A stretch of DNA of 64,000 nt from an uncultured Collinsella sp. (GCA_959606065.1 CAUHHV010000002.1:56575-120574), one strand, 5' to 3'. Positions 1 to 27,489 are shown, numbered from the stretch's first letter. Numbers and translations: made by a program. The notes: generated from the sequence alone by a model not told the origin.

Positions 1-132
1 GCCTGGCAAGCATCCTATTCCGCGCCAACGTGTTGCGAGCCGTATGCTTGTGTTTGAGAACGGTATTAGACACTTCCATCACCACCACATCGGACAAATG
101 GGCCATCGCCGCCGCTGCTGCCGCCGACAAAC

Positions 133-189
133 GTCTCGATCTGTACCAGGTAGACCGGTTTTTTGTCCCTAAACGTTACAGATCGAGAC
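133..189. repeat. Family-1 hairpin repeat (stems GTCTCGATCTGTA / TACAGATCGAGAC, about 25-nt loop); lies just downstream of the 230..937 gene
   Basis: Inverted repeat read directly. The stem sequence and the GACC..TTTT loop motif match the three hairpins at 7733-7950. Confidence 0.6.
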
Positions 190-229
190 ATAAAGGCAGA
201 AGGCAAGGCAGGCGACAACCGTCCATCCC

Positions 230-937
230 CTACTCCCATTCCTGTTCGTAGATGTTGAGCGACTTTACGTACCGCCCCTGGGCGCCCATGATGTCGCGGA
301 CCAGACGCAAGAAGAAGCTGATGCACGAGGTGTCAAAGCCGTCCTGCAGGTCCTCCGGATGCACCGCACCCGGCCCATCGACCGCCGTATCGCTCAGCCG
401 CGCGATGTCATACAGGTAGAGCTGTCCCGCCGTAAGCCAGACATCGTCGACGCAGGCGAGGCGCACCGCAATCGCGCCGTCACTCCAGTGCTCCTTCTGC
501 ACGATATGCGGATCGTAGACATCAAAGCGATGATCGGTGCGTGTGTCCTTCAGCGCAACCATGCCGTTCGCAGGATCCTTGTCCAAAATGCCAAAGCGCG
601 AGAAATACTGCGTGTCGCGTACCTGCTCGAGCCGCTTGAGCGAGGCAGGCGAAAGCGATGCCGGCGGCTCGTCAACATACAGCTCGAGCAGCGTCTTGCC
701 ATGGCGATAGGGGCGCTCGAAGAGCAGCCAATCGGTAAATGCCATGTTGTAGGCCATGATTTCGTTTTGCGAAGGCTCGGTGCAATAGCTGAGCCACGGG
801 TCGACAATGATCTCGAACTGTTCGCGCGCCGGCTCCAAAAACTGGAACTTCCGCAGCATCCAAAAATGGGCCATGTCGGCAATATCGTTGCCGACGGCTT
901 CGGCTAGCTCTGCTCTGTCAAAAGCGTGGTCAGTCAT
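230..937 (-). CDS. hypothetical protein (235 aa)
   Basis: Long ORF with coding-like composition. No family recognised from the sequence alone. Confidence 0.5.
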   Translation of the reverse strand: MTDHAFDRAELAEAVGNDIADMAHFWMLRKFQFLEPAREQFEIIVDPWLSYCTEPSQNEIMAYNMAFTDWLLFERPYRHGKTLLELYVDEPPASLSPASLKRLEQVRDTQYFSRFGILDKDPANGMVALKDTRTDHRFDVYDPHIVQKEHWSDGAIAVRLACVDDVWLTAGQLYLYDIARLSDTAVDGPGAVHPEDLQDGFDTSCISFFLRLVRDIMGAQGRYVKSLNIYEQEWE

Positions 938-1250
938 GGCATCCTCCTCAAACTGATGGACCTCAATTTGAGCTTACGAGGAAGGTGGGCAGCCACGACC
1001 AGCGCGGGCAAAATAGGCCTCCGACTGCAAACCAGATACTGACCAAACACTTGACGAAAAGCTTGATCGAAAATGCGCACCGCAACAAAACCGCAGGTAG
1101 ACATAGACGGCCAACCCGCCCTTTTGAGCCAGATGCCCGCAGCCACCACAGAAACAACAGGTGACCACAGCCCGAGAAGTCGACAAATGAACATCCGTAC
1201 GTCGACAAACGAGCAAACTGCTCGCAAATCCGCAAGGAGTGTCCCCGAGT

Positions 1251-1321
1251 GCCGACAGAAAAGGAACGTCCCTAACTGCCGGCACTTAGGCGGCACTTAG
1301 GGACGTTCCTTTTGTGCCGGC
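1251..1321. repeat. Family-2 palindromic element: 25-bp arms GCCGACAGAAAAGGAACGTCCCTAA / TTAGGGACGTTCCTTTTGTGCCGGC (2 mismatches), 21-nt loop
   Basis: Inverted repeat read directly, about 43 nt downstream of the gltD stop. Related motifs recur at 37158-37267 and 38238-38270. Confidence 0.6.
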
Positions 1322-1363
1322 CGTTGGGGACAGCCCTTGACGATTCAGCTGTGGGCAGCAGCC

Positions 1364-2845
<1,482 letters not shown>

Positions 2846-2850
2846 GGCAC

Positions 2851-5800
2851 TTACGCCTCCTTCTTGGTCGAAGCAACAGGGCTGGCAGCCACGGACGCAG
2901 CACCCGCAGCACCGCCCGCAATATCGAAGCGAGCGACATCCGCGGCGCTCGCGCGACCGGTCACAATGTCAAACGCCAGCTCCTCTGCCTGCGCATGCGT
3001 CTTACCGGCAGCCTCGCTCGCAGCGACAATCGCCAGCACACGCTCGTACTCGGTCGGAATGACCTTCACAAAGTGCTTGCTCATCGTCTCAAAGCTGTAG
3101 AGCAGCTTGATGCCGCGCGGGCTCTGCGTCGCGTCCACGTGCTCCTGGATGAGCTCGCGAATCTGCGCCAGCTCGCCGGCAGTCGGGGCCTTGAGCTCAA
3201 CGCTCTCGTGGTTCACGCGGGCATCGAGCGTGCCGTACTGGTCAAAAACATAAGCCACGCCACCCGTCATGCCGGCAGCGAAGTTCTGCCCGACCTCGCC
3301 CAGGATGAGCGCCAGGCCACCCGTCATGTACTCGCAACCGTGGTTGCCGCAACCCTCGACCACCACGGTGGCACCGGAGTTGCGTACGCCAAAGCGCTGG
3401 CCGGCCAGGCCGTTGATGAAGCCACGGCCGCTCGTGGCGCCAAAGAACGCAACGTTGCCCACGATGATGTTCTCGTCGAACTTGTAGGTCGCATGCGGAT
3501 TGGGGCGCACCGACACCTCGCCGCCCGAAAGGCCCTTGCCAAAGTAGTCGTTGGCGTCGCCGCACACGTTGAGCGTAATGCCGCGCGGCAGGAACGCGCC
3601 AAAACTCTGACCGGCTGAACCATCGCAATCGATGGTAATGGAGCCGGCGGGCAGGCCCTCGGGATGCGCCTTGGTCACCGCGTTGCCCAAGATGGTGCCG
3701 ACGCAGCGGTTGACGTTGGCGATATCGGCGCGGAAGCGTATCGGACGCAGGTGCGCACGGGCATCGGCCGTATAGGGCACAAACAACGTGGAGTCGAGCG
3801 TCTTGTCGAGCTCGCTGTCGGCAGCCATCTGCGGCAGGAAGTGACGACCGTCGGCACCCGGAATATGGGCACCAAACTCACAGGTCGCGCTCGCCAGCAC
3901 GGGCGACAGATCCAGCAGGTTAGCCTTGCGGTTCCCCGGGACCTCGATCTGGCGCAAGCACTCGGGATGGCCGACCATCTCGTCGACGGTGCGGAAGCCC
4001 AGGCTCGCCATGCCCTCGCGCAGTTGCTCGGCAACAAAGAGCATAAAGTGCTCGACGTGCTCTGGCTTGCCGCGGAAGCCGCGACGCAGGCGGCAGTTTT
4101 GCGTAGCGATGCCGGCGGGGCAGGTATCCTGCTGGCAGTCGCGCTGCATGAGGCAGCCCATCGAGATGAGCGGCATGGTCGCAAAGCCAAACTCCTCGGC
4201 GCCCAACAGGCAGGCGACAGCAACATCGGTGCCGTCCATGAGCTTGCCGTCGGCCTCGAGCACCACGCGCGAGCGCAGGCCGTTTTGCAGCAGCGTCTGC
4301 TGAGCCTCGGCAAGGCCAAGCTCCAGCGGCAGACCGGCGTGCCAGATCGAATCGCGCGCAGCGGCACCCGAGCCGCCATTGTGGCCGCTGATCAAAATCT
4401 TGTCGGCAGCACCCTTGGCAACACCAGTGGCGATGGTGCCGACACCAGCCTCGCTGACCAGCTTGACCGACACGCGCGCACCGGGGTTGGCGTTCTTAAG
4501 GTCGAAGATCAGCTCGGCCAGGTCCTCAATGGAGTAGATGTCGTGATGCGGCGGAGGCGAGATCAGGCCGATGCCGGGCGTGGACTGACGGACCTCGGCA
4601 ATCCAGGGGTAGACCTTCTTGCCGGGCAGGTGGCCACCCTCGCCGGGCTTGGCGCCCTGGGCCATCTTGATCTGAATCTCGAAGGCGCTGCACAGGTAGC
4701 GGCTCGTCACGCCAAAGCGCGCACTTGCCACCTGCTTGATCGCGGAGTTCTTGGAGTCACCGTTAGCCAGCGGGGTCTCGCGACGCGGATCCTCACCGCC
4801 CTCGCCCGAGTTGGAACGGCCGTGCAGGCGGTTCATGGCGATGGCCATGCACTCGTGTGCTTCCTTGCTGATGGAGCCGTACGACATGGCGCCGGTGTTA
4901 AAGCGGCGGACGATGTTGAGCGCGGACTCGACCTCGTCGAGCGAAACCGGCGTGCGGCCGCTGGCATCAAAGTCGAGCAAGTCGCGCAGACGCACGGTAC
5001 GGCCGGTGCGGTGCAGGCGGGCGCTGTACTCCTTAAAGGTGTCGTAGCTGTCCTCACGGCAGGCGGTCTGCAGCAGGTAGACGGTCTGGGGGTCGATGAG
5101 GTGTTCCTCGCCGCCGAGCGGGCGCCACTTGGTCAGGCCCAGCGTGGGCAGCTGATCGGGAGCCGGGCTCTTAAGGATAGCGAGCGCGGCGTCGTAGCGC
5201 TCGTTTTGCTCGCGTTCAACGTCCTCGACACCCATACCGCCCACACGGCTCACCGTGCCGGCAAAGTACGCGTTGACGAACTCCGGCGTAAAGCCCACGG
5301 CTTCGAAGATCTGCGCCGAATGGTAGCTCTGCACCGTGGAGATGCCCATCTTGGACATGATGGAGACGATGCCGGCGGTCGCAGCCTTGTTGTAGTTGGC
5401 GATGCCCTGCTCGGCCGTCACGTCCAGGTCGCCGCGTGCCGCCAGATCGCGGATGCACGCATGTGCGTTGTACGGATAGATGCCGCTCGCGGAGTAGCCC
5501 ACCAGTGCCGCAAAGTCGTGCGGGGACACGGCGTCACCGCACTCCACCACGATGTCGGCAAAAGTACGAACGCCGGCGCGGATCAGGTGGTTGTGCACGC
5601 AGCCCACGGCGAGCAGCGACGGCACGGGCACCTCGCCCGCAGCGGCACGATCGCTCAACACCACAATGTTCACGCCGTCGCGGACCGCAGCCTCAACGTC
5701 CTCGGCAAGCTGTTTGAGCGCAGCCTGCAGCGCGCCCTCGCCGGCATCGCGGCGGTAGACGGCACGGAAACGACGGGTCTTAAAGCCAACACGGTCGATG

Positions 5801-7548
5801 GCACAGATATGCTCGAACTCTTCCTCGTTGAGCAATGGGCGCTCCAAGCGCACCAGCTGACAGGCCGTGCGGGAATCCTCGAGCAGGTTGCCGTGGTTGC
5901 CCAGGTAGAGCGTGGTCGAAGTCACCATGTGCTCGCGCAGGGCATCGATCGGAGGATTCGTGACCTGAGCGAACAGCTGATAGAAGTAGTCAAAGAACGA
6001 ACGCGTCTTCTTGGACAGGCAGGCCAACGGCGCATCGATACCCATCGAGGCGAGCGGGGCCTTGCCCTGCTGGGCCATGGGGCGCACGACCTCGTCAACA
6101 TCATCCCAGTGATAGCCGAGCTTGGCCATGCGCACGGCGGCGGGCACCTCGGCATCCTCGGCGGGCGCGGGCGCGGCGGGCTCATCGAGCGCGTCGACGG
6201 TCAGTGTCTCCTCGGCAATCCAGTCGCGGTAGGGCTTCTCCTTGGCATAGCGGGCGCGCAGCTCGTCGTTGTAGATCACGCGGCCGCGGGCAAAATCGAC
6301 CTCGAGCATCTGGCCCGGTCCCAGGCAGCCGCTCGTCAGGATGTTCTCGGGGCTCACCTCGATGGTGCCCACCTCGCTTGCCAGCATAAAGCGGCCATCG
6401 CGCGTCACGTAGTAGCGGGCGGGGCGCAAGCCGTTGCGGTCGAGGGCGGCGCCCAGCGTGCGACCGTCGGTAAAGGCGATGGCCGCCGGGCCGTCCCAGG
6501 GCTCCATGAGCATGGACTGGTAAGCGTCGTAGGCGCGGCGCTCCTCACTCAGGCTATCGTTGTGGTCCCACGGCTCGGGCAGCAACATGGACGCGGCACG
6601 CGTGAGCGGGCGACCGTTCATGACCAAGAATTCGAGCACGTTGTCCAGAATCGCGGAGTCGGAACCCTCGCGGTTGATGATGGGCATCACGCGCTCAAGA
6701 TCGTGCTGCAGCACGGGGCTGTACAGGTTGGGTTCGCGGGCGCGAATCCAGTTGACGTTGCCCTTGAGGGTGTTGATCTCGCCGTTATGGATGATAAAGC
6801 GGTTGGGGTGCGCACGCTCCCAGCTGGGCGTGGTGTTGGTGGAGTAGCGCGAGTGGACGAGCGCCACGGCCGTTTTGACGGCGGCGTCGTTGAGGTCGAT
6901 GAAGAAGCGGCGCATCTGCGTGGCGACCAGCATGCCCTTGTACACGATGGTGCGCGAGCTCATGGAGCACACGTAGAAGATCTTGTCTCGCAGGGCAAAC
7001 TCGGCATCGGCCTTCTTTTCGATGGTGCGGCGGCACACGTACAGACGACGCTCAAAGGCATCGCCGGCGGGCGTGTCGTCCGGACGGCCCAGGAAGGCCT
7101 GCAGGATAGTGGGCATGCAGGCGCGGGCCGTCTCGCCCAGGTCGTGCGGGTCGACGGGCACCTCGCGCCAAAAGAGCAGCGGCACGCCGGCCTCGGCACA
7201 GCCCTCCTCAAACACGCGGCGGGCATCCTCTACGCCCTTGTCGTCCTGCGGGAAGAACAGCATGGCCACGCCATAGTCGCCCTCTGCCGGCAGAATCTGA
7301 CCGCACTTTTGAGCCTCTTTACGGAAAAAGTGATGCGGAACCTGGAACAGGATGCCGGCGCCGTCGCCGGTGTTCTTCTCGAGTCCCGTACCGCCGCGGT
7401 GCTCCAAGTTGACCAGAATGGACAGCGCGTCGTCCAGAATCTGGTGATGGCGCTCACCGTTGATATCGGCAAGCGCGCCGATGCCACATGCATCGTGGTC
7501 GAATTCGGGGCGATAAAGGCCCTGCTGCTGAGCGGAATCTGCCTGCAT
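2851..7548 (-). CDS. gltB: glutamate synthase large subunit
   Basis: 1565-aa ORF. N-terminal amidotransferase begins ...HDACGIG and is followed by FMN-binding and GXGXG domains. There is a 5-nt gap to gltD. Confidence 0.95.
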   Translation of the reverse strand: MQADSAQQQGLYRPEFDHDACGIGALADINGERHHQILDDALSILVNLEHRGGTGLEKNTGDGAGILFQVPHHFFRKEAQKCGQILPAEGDYGVAMLFFPQDDKGVEDARRVFEEGCAEAGVPLLFWREVPVDPHDLGETARACMPTILQAFLGRPDDTPAGDAFERRLYVCRRTIEKKADAEFALRDKIFYVCSMSSRTIVYKGMLVATQMRRFFIDLNDAAVKTAVALVHSRYSTNTTPSWERAHPNRFIIHNGEINTLKGNVNWIRAREPNLYSPVLQHDLERVMPIINREGSDSAILDNVLEFLVMNGRPLTRAASMLLPEPWDHNDSLSEERRAYDAYQSMLMEPWDGPAAIAFTDGRTLGAALDRNGLRPARYYVTRDGRFMLASEVGTIEVSPENILTSGCLGPGQMLEVDFARGRVIYNDELRARYAKEKPYRDWIAEETLTVDALDEPAAPAPAEDAEVPAAVRMAKLGYHWDDVDEVVRPMAQQGKAPLASMGIDAPLACLSKKTRSFFDYFYQLFAQVTNPPIDALREHMVTSTTLYLGNHGNLLEDSRTACQLVRLERPLLNEEEFEHICAIDRVGFKTRRFRAVYRRDAGEGALQAALKQLAEDVEAAVRDGVNIVVLSDRAAAGEVPVPSLLAVGCVHNHLIRAGVRTFADIVVECGDAVSPHDFAALVGYSASGIYPYNAHACIRDLAARGDLDVTAEQGIANYNKAATAGIVSIMSKMGISTVQSYHSAQIFEAVGFTPEFVNAYFAGTVSRVGGMGVEDVEREQNERYDAALAILKSPAPDQLPTLGLTKWRPLGGEEHLIDPQTVYLLQTACREDSYDTFKEYSARLHRTGRTVRLRDLLDFDASGRTPVSLDEVESALNIVRRFNTGAMSYGSISKEAHECMAIAMNRLHGRSNSGEGGEDPRRETPLANGDSKNSAIKQVASARFGVTSRYLCSAFEIQIKMAQGAKPGEGGHLPGKKVYPWIAEVRQSTPGIGLISPPPHHDIYSIEDLAELIFDLKNANPGARVSVKLVSEAGVGTIATGVAKGAADKILISGHNGGSGAAARDSIWHAGLPLELGLAEAQQTLLQNGLRSRVVLEADGKLMDGTDVAVACLLGAEEFGFATMPLISMGCLMQRDCQQDTCPAGIATQNCRLRRGFRGKPEHVEHFMLFVAEQLREGMASLGFRTVDEMVGHPECLRQIEVPGNRKANLLDLSPVLASATCEFGAHIPGADGRHFLPQMAADSELDKTLDSTLFVPYTADARAHLRPIRFRADIANVNRCVGTILGNAVTKAHPEGLPAGSITIDCDGSAGQSFGAFLPRGITLNVCGDANDYFGKGLSGGEVSVRPNPHATYKFDENIIVGNVAFFGATSGRGFINGLAGQRFGVRNSGATVVVEGCGNHGCEYMTGGLALILGEVGQNFAAGMTGGVAYVFDQYGTLDARVNHESVELKAPTAGELAQIRELIQEHVDATQSPRGIKLLYSFETMSKHFVKVIPTEYERVLAIVAASEAAGKTHAQAEELAFDIVTGRASAADVARFDIAGGAAGAASVAASPVASTKKEA

Positions 7549-7732
7549 CGCGATCCTCCCCTAGATATTTAGACAGTCAGTTGAATAGGCATACTAGGAG
7601 CATCGCCGACCCGTTGTGTTTCCCACCCGTTTCGAAACAATCGCGTAACGCACGCCCTACGAGTGGACACCGCCGACCTCAAGGGCGACAACATAGGCCC
7701 CAAGTTCGGCCTGTAAGCTCACTGCTTCAAAC

Positions 7733-7950
7733 ATCTCAATCTGTAACAGTAAGACCCAATTTCGACGACTAACTGTTACAGATCAAGATGTTTTCGAGAG
7801 ACGGTTCCGAATGTCTCAATCTGTAACACGAAGGGTCAGTTTTGGCGGTCAGCTGTTACAGATCGAGATTTTCCATAGGACCATTTCTTCCTGTCTTGAT
7901 CTGTAACACCTAGACCCAATTTCCATCCCCAGTTGTTACAGATCAAGACA
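7733..7950 (+). repeat. Tandem array of three family-1 hairpins (units about 7733-7789, 7814-7869, 7892-7950; 17-bp stems ..TCTCAATCTGTAACA / TGTTACAGATCAAGA.., 22-24-nt loops), each followed by a short T run; lies in the mntH 5' leader
   Basis: Read directly. Loops 1 and 3 share GACCCAATTTC. Unit 3 has a perfect 17-bp stem. Confidence 0.7.
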
Positions 7951-8071
7951 TTTCGGCAACCCCCTTTCCCCACCCCATTCAAATACAACTATTTTGTTAG
8001 TCATAGTTAACTTTTGAGCCTAAAACGGGTATCCTTTGCGGCGTCAAACAAACGGCACACAGGAGCGCACC

Positions 8072-9328
8072 ATGCTCAACCATCTCAAACAACATTTTGG
8101 CTCCCGACGCACCGGCGGTCACGGAGGCCTAGACATTGCGCGGCATATCGGCCCCGGGCTGCTCGTGACCGTCGGCTTTATCGACCCGGGCAACTGGGCC
8201 TCCAATATGGCCGCGGGCTCGCAGTTTGGATACGCGCTGCTGTGGATCGTCACACTGTCCACGATTATGCTCATTGTGCTGCAGCACAATGCGGCGCACC
8301 TGGGTATCGCCACGGGCGCCTGTCTTGCCGAGGCCACGACACGTTACCTCCCCCGCTTCGTCGGGCGCACGGTGCTCGCCAGTGCCTATCTCGCGACCAT
8401 CGCCACCGCCATGGCCGAAGTCCTGGGTGGCGCGATTGCCCTTCAAATGCTCTTTGGGCTGCCCGTGCGCGCAGGCTGCGTCATCGTGGCGGCGGCATCG
8501 ATGGCGATGCTCATGACGAGCTCCTACAAGCGCGCCGAGCGGTGGATCATTGCCTTCGTGGGCGTGGTAGGACTCTCGTTTTTGGCCGAGCTTGCGCTGG
8601 TCAAGGTCGACTGGCCGCAAGCCGCCACAAGCTGGATTACGCCCAGCATGCCCACCGGCTCGGCCGCGATTATCGTGAGTGTCCTGGGCGCGGTCGTTAT
8701 GCCCCACAACCTCTTTCTGCACTCCGAGGTCATCCAATCCATGCACTTCGAAGGCCAAGGCGAGCAAGTTATCGAAGAGCGTCTGCGCTATGAGCTCTTC
8801 GACACGCTCTTTTCGATGGGCGTGGGCTGGGCAATCAACTCGGCCATGGTCATCCTGGCCGCAACGACCTTCTTTGCGCACGGCATTGTCGTAGACGACC
8901 TCGCCGTCGCAGCGGCCACGCTCTCCCCCATCTTGGGCCCGGCGAGCTCGACTATCTTTGCGGTGGCGCTGCTGTTTGCGGGCCTCTCGAGTAGTGTGAC
9001 GGCGGGCATGGCGGCAGGCACCATCACCGCGGGCATGTTCGACGAGGAATACGACATCCACGACCGACATTCCTCGATTGGGGTGGCGGCATGTTTCGTC
9101 GGCGCAGTGGCGGCGTGTCTGGTCGTCCCAAATCCTTTTGAAGGTCTCATCTGGAGCCAGGCGCTGCTGTCGCTTCAGCTGCCGATCACGGTTTTCGTGC
9201 TTATACGGCTCACCAGCTCGCGCCGCGTCATGGGCAGATACGCCAATTCACGCCCGCTCAACACGCTGCTCGTAGGAATCGGTGCCATCGTGACGATTCT
9301 CGACATCGTGCTGCTAACGGGGATGTAA
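8072..9328 (+). CDS. mntH: NRAMP-family divalent metal (Mn2+/Fe2+) transporter
   Basis: NRAMP signature GPGLLVTVGFIDPGNWASN and multiple TM segments. Start chosen at the ATG that follows an AGGAG ribosome-binding site. The ORF is also open from 8036. Confidence 0.85.
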   Translation: MLNHLKQHFGSRRTGGHGGLDIARHIGPGLLVTVGFIDPGNWASNMAAGSQFGYALLWIVTLSTIMLIVLQHNAAHLGIATGACLAEATTRYLPRFVGRTVLASAYLATIATAMAEVLGGAIALQMLFGLPVRAGCVIVAAASMAMLMTSSYKRAERWIIAFVGVVGLSFLAELALVKVDWPQAATSWITPSMPTGSAAIIVSVLGAVVMPHNLFLHSEVIQSMHFEGQGEQVIEERLRYELFDTLFSMGVGWAINSAMVILAATTFFAHGIVVDDLAVAAATLSPILGPASSTIFAVALLFAGLSSSVTAGMAAGTITAGMFDEEYDIHDRHSSIGVAACFVGAVAACLVVPNPFEGLIWSQALLSLQLPITVFVLIRLTSSRRVMGRYANSRPLNTLLVGIGAIVTILDIVLLTGM

Positions 9329-9357
9329 TTGGGATGGCGTGACTGTCCAGATATAAC

Positions 9358-9375
9358 GTCTCAATCTGTAACACG
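9358..9375 (+). repeat. Partial (left-arm only) copy of the family-1 hairpin repeat, downstream of mntH
   Basis: GTCTCAATCTGTAACACG followed by a loop-like GTAAGGCCGTTTTAAACC. No right arm is present. Confidence 0.45.
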
Positions 9376-9397
9376 TAAGGCCGTTTTAAACCGTCAG

Positions 9398-9440
9398 ATA
9401 AATCAAAAGGGCCCCGGCCGAGAATTCGACCGGGGCCCTT
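9398..9440. terminator. GC-rich hairpin (AAGGGCCCCGG..CCGGGGCCCTT) between convergent mntH and rubredoxin; followed by a T-rich tract on the minus strand
   Basis: Stem-loop read directly. On the minus strand it is followed by TTTTGATTTAT, about 40 nt past the rubredoxin stop. Confidence 0.5.
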
Positions 9441-11894: not shown

Positions 11895-11970
11895 TGGTAG
11901 CCCGTACCAGATTCGAACTGGTGATCTCCGCCTTGAGAGGGCGGCGTCCTAAACCGCTAGACGAACGGGC
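11895..11970 (-). tRNA. tRNA-Glu (anticodon CTC)
   Basis: Hand-folded cloverleaf: acceptor GCCCGT, anticodon stem CCGCC/GGCGG around loop CTCTCAA, T-loop GTTCGAATC, CCA encoded. Confidence 0.75.
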
Positions 11971-11988
11971 CATATGTAGCAAATGCAA

Positions 11989-12062
11989 TGGCTGGGATGG
12001 AGGGAGTCGAACCCCCATTGACGGAACCAGAATCCGCTGTCCTGCCATTAGACGACATCCCA
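11989..12062 (-). tRNA. tRNA-Gln (anticodon CTG)
   Basis: Hand-folded: acceptor TGGGATG/CATCCCA, anticodon loop TTCTGGT, T-loop GGTTCGACTCC, CCA encoded. Confidence 0.7.
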
Positions 12063-27303: not shown

Positions 27304-27489
27304 GGTAGGACTCCTTATTAGTCAGGCGCTGGTTACCGATCAGCGCATAAGGCGTCTTGGTTTCCGACCAAGACAACAAACTCGACTATGGTACCACGGC
27401 GCCGCGTGTCCCACAAAAGGTTCACGGTCTTTTCGGCACAACACGAGCTGGACCTTAAATATCAACTTCATCCGAACACTCCCCCACAT

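Follow-up and report, generated by a model that had tools for sequence, protein, structure and literature searches.

The three hairpins between gltB and mntH in a 64,000-nucleotide stretch of DNA from an uncultured Collinsella sp. (GCA_959606065.1, CAUHHV010000002.1:56575–120574; hereafter, the window) are copies of a genomic repeat of the REP/BIME-like kind rather than a switch that senses manganese, because the same repeat is found at dozens of unrelated intergenic regions. On the evidence below, we consider it likely that the family is a Collinsella-specific interspersed intergenic repeat that forms dynamic arrays, has arms that are read sequence-specifically and lacks any manganese-specific role. 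The family is REPIN/BIME/NIME-like and appears to be undescribed.

Anatomy of the gltB–mntH array

Three 57-bp hairpin units occupy window positions 7733–7949 with a period of exactly 80 bp. They lie between the genes for the glutamate synthase large subunit (gltB, 2851–7548, − strand) and an Nramp transporter (mntH, 8072–9328, + strand); both gene calls were confirmed, and the gene identities and the tandem hairpins of about 57 bp given in a preliminary description of this DNA were therefore correct. Unit 1 (7733–7789; arms 7733–7748 and 7774–7789) encloses the 25-nt loop GTAAGACCCAATTTCGACGACTAAC and is joined by a 23-nt linker (7790–7812) to unit 2 (7813–7869; arms 7813–7828 and 7854–7869), which a second 23-nt linker (7870–7892) separates from unit 3 (7893–7949; arms 7893–7908 and 7934–7949). 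The 16-mer arms match GTCTCGATCTGTAACA at 7733(+), 7774(−), 7813(+), 7854(−), 7893(+) and 7934(−), with orientation flipping every 39–41 bp. Three further matches lie beyond the array, at 133(+), 174(−) and 9358(+), giving nine matches with at most two mismatches in the window compared with 0.10 expected from shuffled sequences. Loops 1 and 3 have GACCCAATTTC in common, and hairpins 1, 2 and 3 are followed on the 3′ side by the short T runs GTTTTC, TTTTCC and ATTTC, respectively, both as first noticed. The stem had been given as 17 bp around a loop of 22–24 nt; the loop is indeed 23 nt when the stem is taken as 17 bp, but 25 nt separate the two 16-mers, and units 1 and 2 have one or two C·A mismatches in the stem on the + strand. 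Tandem Repeats Finder missed the array because its units are too diverged.

Each unit folds as RNA, on either strand, with a free energy of −20 to −32 kcal/mol (z = −4.7 to −8.1), and as DNA with −9 to −16 kcal/mol; a fold of the whole region shows that long-range pairing between arms of different units is also possible. Such stable RNA hairpins, alternative pairings and T runs speak for a cis-acting RNA. It might be a series of manganese-responsive attenuators or terminators in the mntH leader, or a hairpin with a generic mRNA-stabilizing or terminating effect. A promoter and terminator scan of positions 7400–8200 yielded no sigma-70-like site. Against a cis-acting RNA, the scan did not identify the units as terminators, and neither their 25-nt loops nor the A-W-W that follows the stem in the consensus resembles a terminator. 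A search of Rfam 15, which includes the manganese riboswitch and Collinsella-1 models, returned no match at the gathering threshold in the region, consistent with the early impression that no known riboswitch family is present; at E ≤ 10, it gave only sub-threshold, spurious eukaryotic microRNA hairpin models.

The 122 nt between the last arm and the mntH start codon (7950–8071, + strand) lie outside the repeat. The distance from the right arm of the last unit to the ATG is 122 nt in every array-bearing species, and alignment shows that the stretch is conserved in all of them; neither a sigma-70-like consensus nor an inverted repeat or operator was found in these 122 nt. Given this fixed distance and this conservation, the promoter, operator and ribosome-binding site of mntH are presumably located within them, 3′ of the array. 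The array could still be part of a long 5′ untranslated region.

Along the 80-bp unit, A/T-rich triplets recur at multiples of about 10 bp (positions −2 to 0, 19–20, 28–30, 38–39 and 58–60). They sit at the arm–linker junctions, at the TAG/CTA motifs and at the exact loop centre (for example, window 7731–7733, 7760–7762 and 7790–7792), and their spacing suggests helical phasing or intrinsic bending.

Other copies and neighbouring elements in the window

A fourth intact unit, also recognized previously, lies at 133–189, 3′ of a gene for a 235-amino-acid protein (230–937, − strand), and corresponds to the last unit of a longer array that extends upstream of the window in related strains (locus L002, 1892–2189). 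The left-arm-only copy reported past mntH is a half copy (9358–9398, + strand) in which the left arm (9358–9373) is followed by 25 loop-like nucleotides and the right arm is absent. On its 5′ side is the mntH stop codon and on its 3′ side a GC-rich, terminator-like hairpin. A search of the other 54 kb with a profile derived from 328 related units detected no additional copy.

The GC-rich hairpin (GGGCCCCGGCCGAGAATTCGACCGGGGCCC, 9407–9440; RNA −28.4 kcal/mol, z = −5.4) is unrelated to the repeat family. It separates mntH from a convergent rubredoxin-like gene and is likely to be a bidirectional terminator; that mntH has this strong, separate terminator-like element is a further point against a terminating role for the repeat. 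A different C. aerofaciens strain has an IS200/IS605 element (tnpA WP_055287554.1; L156 22748–23495, equal to NZ_OY725717.1 422748–423495 and equivalent to about window position 9400) inserted around 35 bp past the half copy and before the terminator-like hairpin. An identical second element at 533435–533893 has no arms nearby, and the end hairpins of both are GC-rich and unrelated to the arms. Elsewhere in the window, Rfam identified an L31-Coriobacteria ribosomal-protein leader (27311–27346, − strand; 36 bits against a threshold of 33), in keeping with the rpmE gene at the equivalent position of the C. aerofaciens record, and two tRNA genes (11898–11971 and 11992–12062, both − strand).

Distribution across Collinsella

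The 16-bp arm, RTCTCRATCTGTAACA, is present in 861 copies in 171 arrays in a 1.04-Mb sample (the window plus 126 loci) that covers about 110 Collinsella species. An exact hairpin pattern searched in one genome per species recovered at least 120 blocks, and among the matches listed essentially all were from Collinsella. The basic unit comprises 57 bp, with two inverted 16-bp arms around 25 poorly conserved bases. Its dimensions are nearly invariant: the spacing from a + to a − arm is 41 in 395 of 398 pairs, which corresponds to a 25-nt loop, and that from a − to a + arm is 39 or 40 in 248 of 258 pairs, which corresponds to a linker of 23 or 24 nt. Arrays consist of whole hairpins, with 1–8 units head to tail, mostly 4, 6 or 8 arms and a maximum of 16. 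Clustering of the flanking sequences yielded 24 genomic contexts and few singletons, indicating a few dozen orthologous sites rather than hundreds of independent insertions.

The arrays are overwhelmingly intergenic (159 of 171 lie outside called open reading frames in the 1.04-Mb sample) and show no preference for convergent or unidirectional gaps; in this sample, 42 were between divergent genes, 41 between convergent genes and 48 between tandem genes. The flanking genes are mutually unrelated and have housekeeping and sugar-utilization functions. They include LacI, DeoR and GntR regulators, PTS and lac genes (lacG), CoaX, Dxs, ClpB, RF3, a DEAD helicase, GlmS, ThiD, GlgP/MalK and a copper-type P-type ATPase. 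Neither an adjoining transposase nor a cas-like neighbour was present among the flanking genes of the sampled arrays. The suggestion that the hairpins might be a REP-like element is thus upheld by dozens of unrelated intergenic sites across the genus. For a cis-acting RNA with a role at mntH, the unrelated genes are a difficulty, as are the roughly 30% of arrays (27–32%) between divergent genes, where no termination is needed.

The repeat was presumably mobile at some time, as judged only from its dispersal; no empty orthologous site was found among the fetched loci, a sample ill-suited to such a search. BLAST searches of plasmid and phage collections matched a single Collinsella replicon and nothing else. 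Ten Collinsella-like IMG/VR contigs carry arrays where host-matching DNA meets phage-like DNA (for example, L144 3691–5402, and L128, L131, L140, L143 and L145). The array in L144 is 135 bp from the end of a large serine recombinase gene, and five of the contigs have the GDSL-lipase/ThiD site in common. These arrays could reflect integration next to arrays or host flank included in prophage calls; they are probably host flank, because their flanks match known host contexts.

The matching replicon, NZ_OY725717.1 (899,693 bp, from PLSDB), is a plasmid by label and carries ribosomal protein operons, rpoBC and dnaE. We used it for a census of one whole C. aerofaciens replicon. The gltB–mntH array is present there with 99% identity, and a profile search found 15 sites (13 arrays and 2 half copies) with 69 arms and about 31 hairpins. 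All 15 sites are intergenic in the RefSeq annotation (6 convergent, 4 divergent and 5 tandem). Six of them lie in 402.7–422.7 kb, around copA, gltBD and mntH, a region that corresponds to window 1–9400 plus about 20 kb upstream, and none lies in the first 400 kb. The proposed preferential insertion around mntH therefore holds as a local hot region of six sites in 20 kb and fails as a link to metal genes: the repeat is absent at seven other metal-related genes of the replicon (a putative manganese transporter, a second P-type ATPase, a metal-dependent regulator, two CDF transporters, feoB and mntP), which also counts against a manganese-responsive RNA.

Extrapolation to a 2.4-Mb genome gives roughly 150–180 arms at about 40 sites. 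On the basis of one 0.9-Mb replicon and capture–recapture of contexts, the copy number per genome is tens to about a hundred, and not many hundreds. The preliminary description had named, as the result that would speak against its regulatory reading, a dispersed and abundant REP element with hundreds of copies and no bias towards mntH or metal genes; this is essentially what we found, apart from the smaller number of copies.

Copy-number variation and recombination

The same MntH protein is encoded on many gut-metagenome contigs, and we compared 20 loci encoding the MntH N terminus at 93–100% identity. The number of units upstream of mntH varies: three units in nine loci, two in one, one in six and none in four, with mntH preceded by another gene in the four zero-unit loci. 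The presence of zero to three copies before near-identical mntH genes indicates that the array is dispensable for mntH and is evidence against an attenuator. Among the six one-unit forms, four have a chimeric loop in which the left of loop 1 is fused to the right of loop 3 at GACCCAATTTC, and two have loop 1 fused to the last right arm. Chimeric loops mark crossovers between units, and the one-unit forms are therefore recombination products. A 1.46-kb deletion that removes a gene for a 356-amino-acid protein has both end points inside hairpins. Together, these cases show that arrays expand, contract and delete neighbouring DNA through recombination between units, and hence behave as variable-number repeats and recombination hot spots.

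The gene lost in this deletion (L002 795–1865, immediately before the start of the window; E = 0.026 for a weak match to DUF559) is flanked by arrays on both sides in 14 loci and is absent in one strain (L006); paralogues elsewhere with 35% identity have no adjoining arrays. Two paralogues of about 200–236 amino acids that are around 50% identical and have no family match each have an array about 55 bp downstream (L016 2683–3276 and 4633–5226; L040 435–1031), and a gene for an AAA_16 ATPase (L041 4860–5966) is also flanked by arrays. We considered these array-bracketed genes (356-amino-acid, AAA_16 ATPase and approximately 236-amino-acid proteins) as cognate enzymes of the repeat and rejected all of them, because each has a single orthologous site, paralogues occur without arrays and one gene is missing in a strain that keeps the arrays.

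Arm sequence and spacing, not pairing, are conserved

Between orthologous arrays of different species, identity is 95.2% in the arms, 82.2% in the loops, 80.9% in the linkers and 82.8% in the flanks, a comparison that is partly biased because arms were detected by their similarity to the consensus. A smaller comparison of strains chosen through MntH, and so not ascertained on the repeat, agrees with constraint on the arms (59 of 1088 arm positions differ, compared with 124 of 850 loop positions). The arms evolve about three times more slowly than the loops, linkers or flanks, in line with the initial observation of conserved stems and variable loops. Non-orthologous copies are 90% identical in the arms and 43–51% identical in the loops. 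Arm positions 2–4 and 7–16 contain 1.7–2.0 bits each, and a purine (G/A) occupies positions 1 and 6. In the loop there is only a weak consensus, nnTAG-N6-WWW-N6-CTAnn, which occurs in both orientations, even in adjacent units. Loop length is held far more strictly than loop sequence: from the 0.0097 gap openings per bp of non-coding flanks, about 21% of 25-bp segments would be expected to have changed in length, whereas 99% of loops measure exactly 25 nt.

The behaviour of the loops also decides against a CRISPR-like array, whose acquired spacers would be the variable segments of 25 and 23 nt. Conserved repeats that are regularly interspaced with variable segments, and unit numbers that differ between strains, are features of such arrays. 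Here, the orientation of the repeat alternates, random pairs of loops are 51% identical, and each genome has dozens of small arrays, which were found without a cas-like neighbour. Loops that share a degenerate consensus, and that are inherited orthologously and diverge at the rate of the flanks, exclude this origin for practical purposes; the preliminary description had reached the same view from the alternating, hairpin-forming repeats, and we give the idea virtually no credence.

Selection for pairing was not detected. Among 144 distinct units, 80.6% of cells are standard-paired compared with 81.2 ± 0.4% when the letters of the 3′ arm are shuffled among copies, and the covariation score is 0.123 compared with 0.129 in shuffles. 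On the sense strand of arrays between co-oriented genes, G·U and C·A pairs are about equally frequent (71 and 79, P = 0.57), with no bias towards wobble pairs. The absence of covariation and of a sense-strand G·U bias indicates that arm sequence and spacing are conserved, rather than base pairing. Invariant stem positions cannot covary, so a sequence-exact hairpin that is read in single-stranded DNA or RNA is still compatible with these results. The absence of covariation and of wobble bias adds to the variable copy number at near-identical mntH genes, the third or so of arrays between divergent genes, the 25-nt loops and the negative terminator and Rfam searches, and the attenuator or structured-sRNA interpretation is not supported. 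The cis-acting RNA reading is largely refuted, and we regard it as extremely improbable.

Several other explanations were considered and rejected. CpG deamination does not account for the variation of the arms: in the arm sense, CG to CA stands at 47% (position 6 G/A) and CG to TG at only 9%, an asymmetry that indicates a tolerated purine and not symmetric CpG decay. The loop interior is not an extension of the stem; complementarity is 3.7 of 11 within a copy and 4.6 between copies, and the lower within-copy value arises because loops are present in both orientations. An integron attC site was also dismissed, as the GTTAC/GTAAC motifs sit at the inner rather than the outer ends of the palindrome and are a misfit to RYYYAAC/GTTRRRY.

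The arm GTCTCGATCTGTAACA has no internal stem of its own, and the palindrome arises only from the 57-bp pair of arms. The bases that flank the unit are complementary (T...A, an extension of the stem) and not a direct target-site duplication. This is relevant to the possibility that the units are MITEs, miniature elements that derive from a resident DDE insertion sequence and whose terminal inverted repeats would be the arms. Short inverted termini around a variable interior, dispersed intergenic sites and the many insertion sequence families of the genome (IS21, IS256, IS30, IS3, IS110, IS1595 and IS1249) would all fit. However, besides the missing target-site duplication, the units form seamless tandem arrays at a fixed period rather than independent insertions, the sites are orthologous across species, the plasmid and phage collections gave no match outside Collinsella, and no arms lie beside annotated transposase genes in 0.9 Mb (except that the IS200/IS605 element is about 35 bp past the mntH half copy). 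A MITE origin is therefore very unlikely.

Interpretation and significance

We infer that the arms are kept since something reads their sequence and spacing. The simplest reader would be a protein acting on DNA, for which the arms would serve as phased inverted sites; it could be a host DNA-binding protein, or a recombinase or transposase that once spread the element. Any effect of the array on the expression of gltB or mntH would be a generic side effect, exerted, for example, by RNA hairpins if the array is transcribed or by a change in DNA topology.

A more specific version, which we put forward tentatively and hold to be less than probable, is that, instead of being selfish DNA in decay, the arrays are nucleoprotein elements maintained by the host, REP-like but acting as double-stranded DNA and RAYT-free. 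Arms about 40 bp (four helical turns) apart, together with the A/T triplets phased at around 10 bp, would constitute phased candidate binding sites. A Collinsella-specific DNA-binding or recombinase protein may assemble at the approximately 40 intergenic sites per genome. It might organize DNA locally, or provide a recombination platform for the gain and loss of neighbouring accessory genes such as the 356-amino-acid protein gene, the AAA ATPase gene and possibly prophages.

The interspersed Collinsella repeat matters in several respects, whatever reads it. Recognizing it keeps a supposed 'Mn attenuator array', an easy mistake to make, out of the annotation of a genus that is very common in the human gut, and puts on record an apparently undescribed family of interspersed repeats in Coriobacteriia. 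Array copy number differs among strains with identical MntH, which makes the arrays possible VNTR-like strain markers. They are likely break points in metagenome assemblies, and they are demonstrable recombination substrates that delete or bracket accessory genes. The conservation of arms and spacing without covariation raises the testable question of their reader.

Comparison with known systems

The surveys of GTAG/CGTC REPs and of RAYTs that we consulted do not mention Actinobacteria, and a search of the literature on Collinsella repeats returned nothing relevant. Rho-independent terminators, attenuators and the yybP-ykoY manganese riboswitch resemble the window copies in having stem–loops near a transporter gene and T runs; they differ from the Collinsella hairpins, which have AT-rich stems, 25-nt loops, no family-wide U tract and no Rfam match.

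The architecture matches that of the REPINs of Pseudomonas fluorescens SBW25 (Bertels & Rainey 2011, PMC3116915). Like them, the Collinsella family has a predicted hairpin, single units with remnant half units, and ordered tandem clusters that include the flanks (PMC3116915). The likeness raises the possibility of a true REPIN/RAYT system, in which a 57-bp non-autonomous hairpin formed in single-stranded DNA at the replication fork would be moved by a single-copy HUH/Y1 transposase, and the conservation of the arms would reflect the requirements of the RAYT enzyme. The REPIN definition is matched by inverted, invariant 16-mers around a less conserved spacer of fixed length in tandem clusters with flanks (PMC3116915), the arms alternate at regular spacing as in BIMEs (PMC2817692), the foot of the hairpin, YGTC, recalls CGTC/TGTC-tagged REPs (PMC3733652), and Y1 transposases are present in the genus (IS200/IS605 tnpA).

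Other features set the family apart from REPINs. The start-to-start distance of the arms is 41 bp rather than 71 bp (PMC3116915), a single arm has no palindromic core, and compensatory changes, which are described as common in REPINs (PMC3116915), are absent. There are tens of sites per genome instead of hundreds, and units mostly occur in arrays. Different species carry the arrays at orthologous sites, where the arms are conserved locus by locus instead of decaying. Convergent and unidirectional gaps are preferred by REPs (PMC3733652), but about one-third of the Collinsella arrays are flanked by divergent genes. No RAYT was found: tblastn detected no Y1 or RAYT protein near arrays in 1.2 Mb (nothing below E = 0.6, with approximate queries that make this a weak negative), the annotation of the 0.9-Mb replicon shows none beside arrays, and the only Y1 genes of that replicon are the two identical IS200/IS605 copies with unrelated end hairpins. 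A RAYT-driven mechanism is thus possible but unsupported, and we judge it unlikely. The architecture of the family also matches two further published descriptions.

The REPs (PU) and BIMEs of Enterobacteria are likewise extragenic, with alternating regular repeats, two alternating classes of fixed-length linkers and copy numbers that vary between strains (PMC2817692). REPs of E. coli are themselves imperfect palindromes of 35–40 bp with a GTAG tag; they number in the hundreds, mostly follow the 3′ ends of genes and bind gyrase, IHF and Pol I (PMC2817692). In Collinsella, by contrast, 27–32% of arrays lie between divergent genes, and the arm is not itself a palindrome of 20–40 bp; the REP preference for convergent or unidirectional gaps is not seen in the near-even split of 42 divergent, 41 convergent and 48 tandem settings.

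The NIMEs of Neisseria (dRS3 plus RS) have no sequence similarity to the Collinsella repeat. The dRS3 unit is 20 bp long with its own 6-bp terminal inverted repeat, and the RS spacers are 50–150 bp and belong to many families (PMC1797815), whereas the spacers in Collinsella are 25 and 23–24 bp and nearly invariant in length. The general arrangement is nevertheless alike: NIMEs also consist of short conserved repeats around variable spacers, in intergenic arrays that are dynamic in number and length (PMC1797815), and those arrays lie beside variable genes, have been proposed as recombinase binding sites and have prophages integrated at or next to them (PMC1797815).
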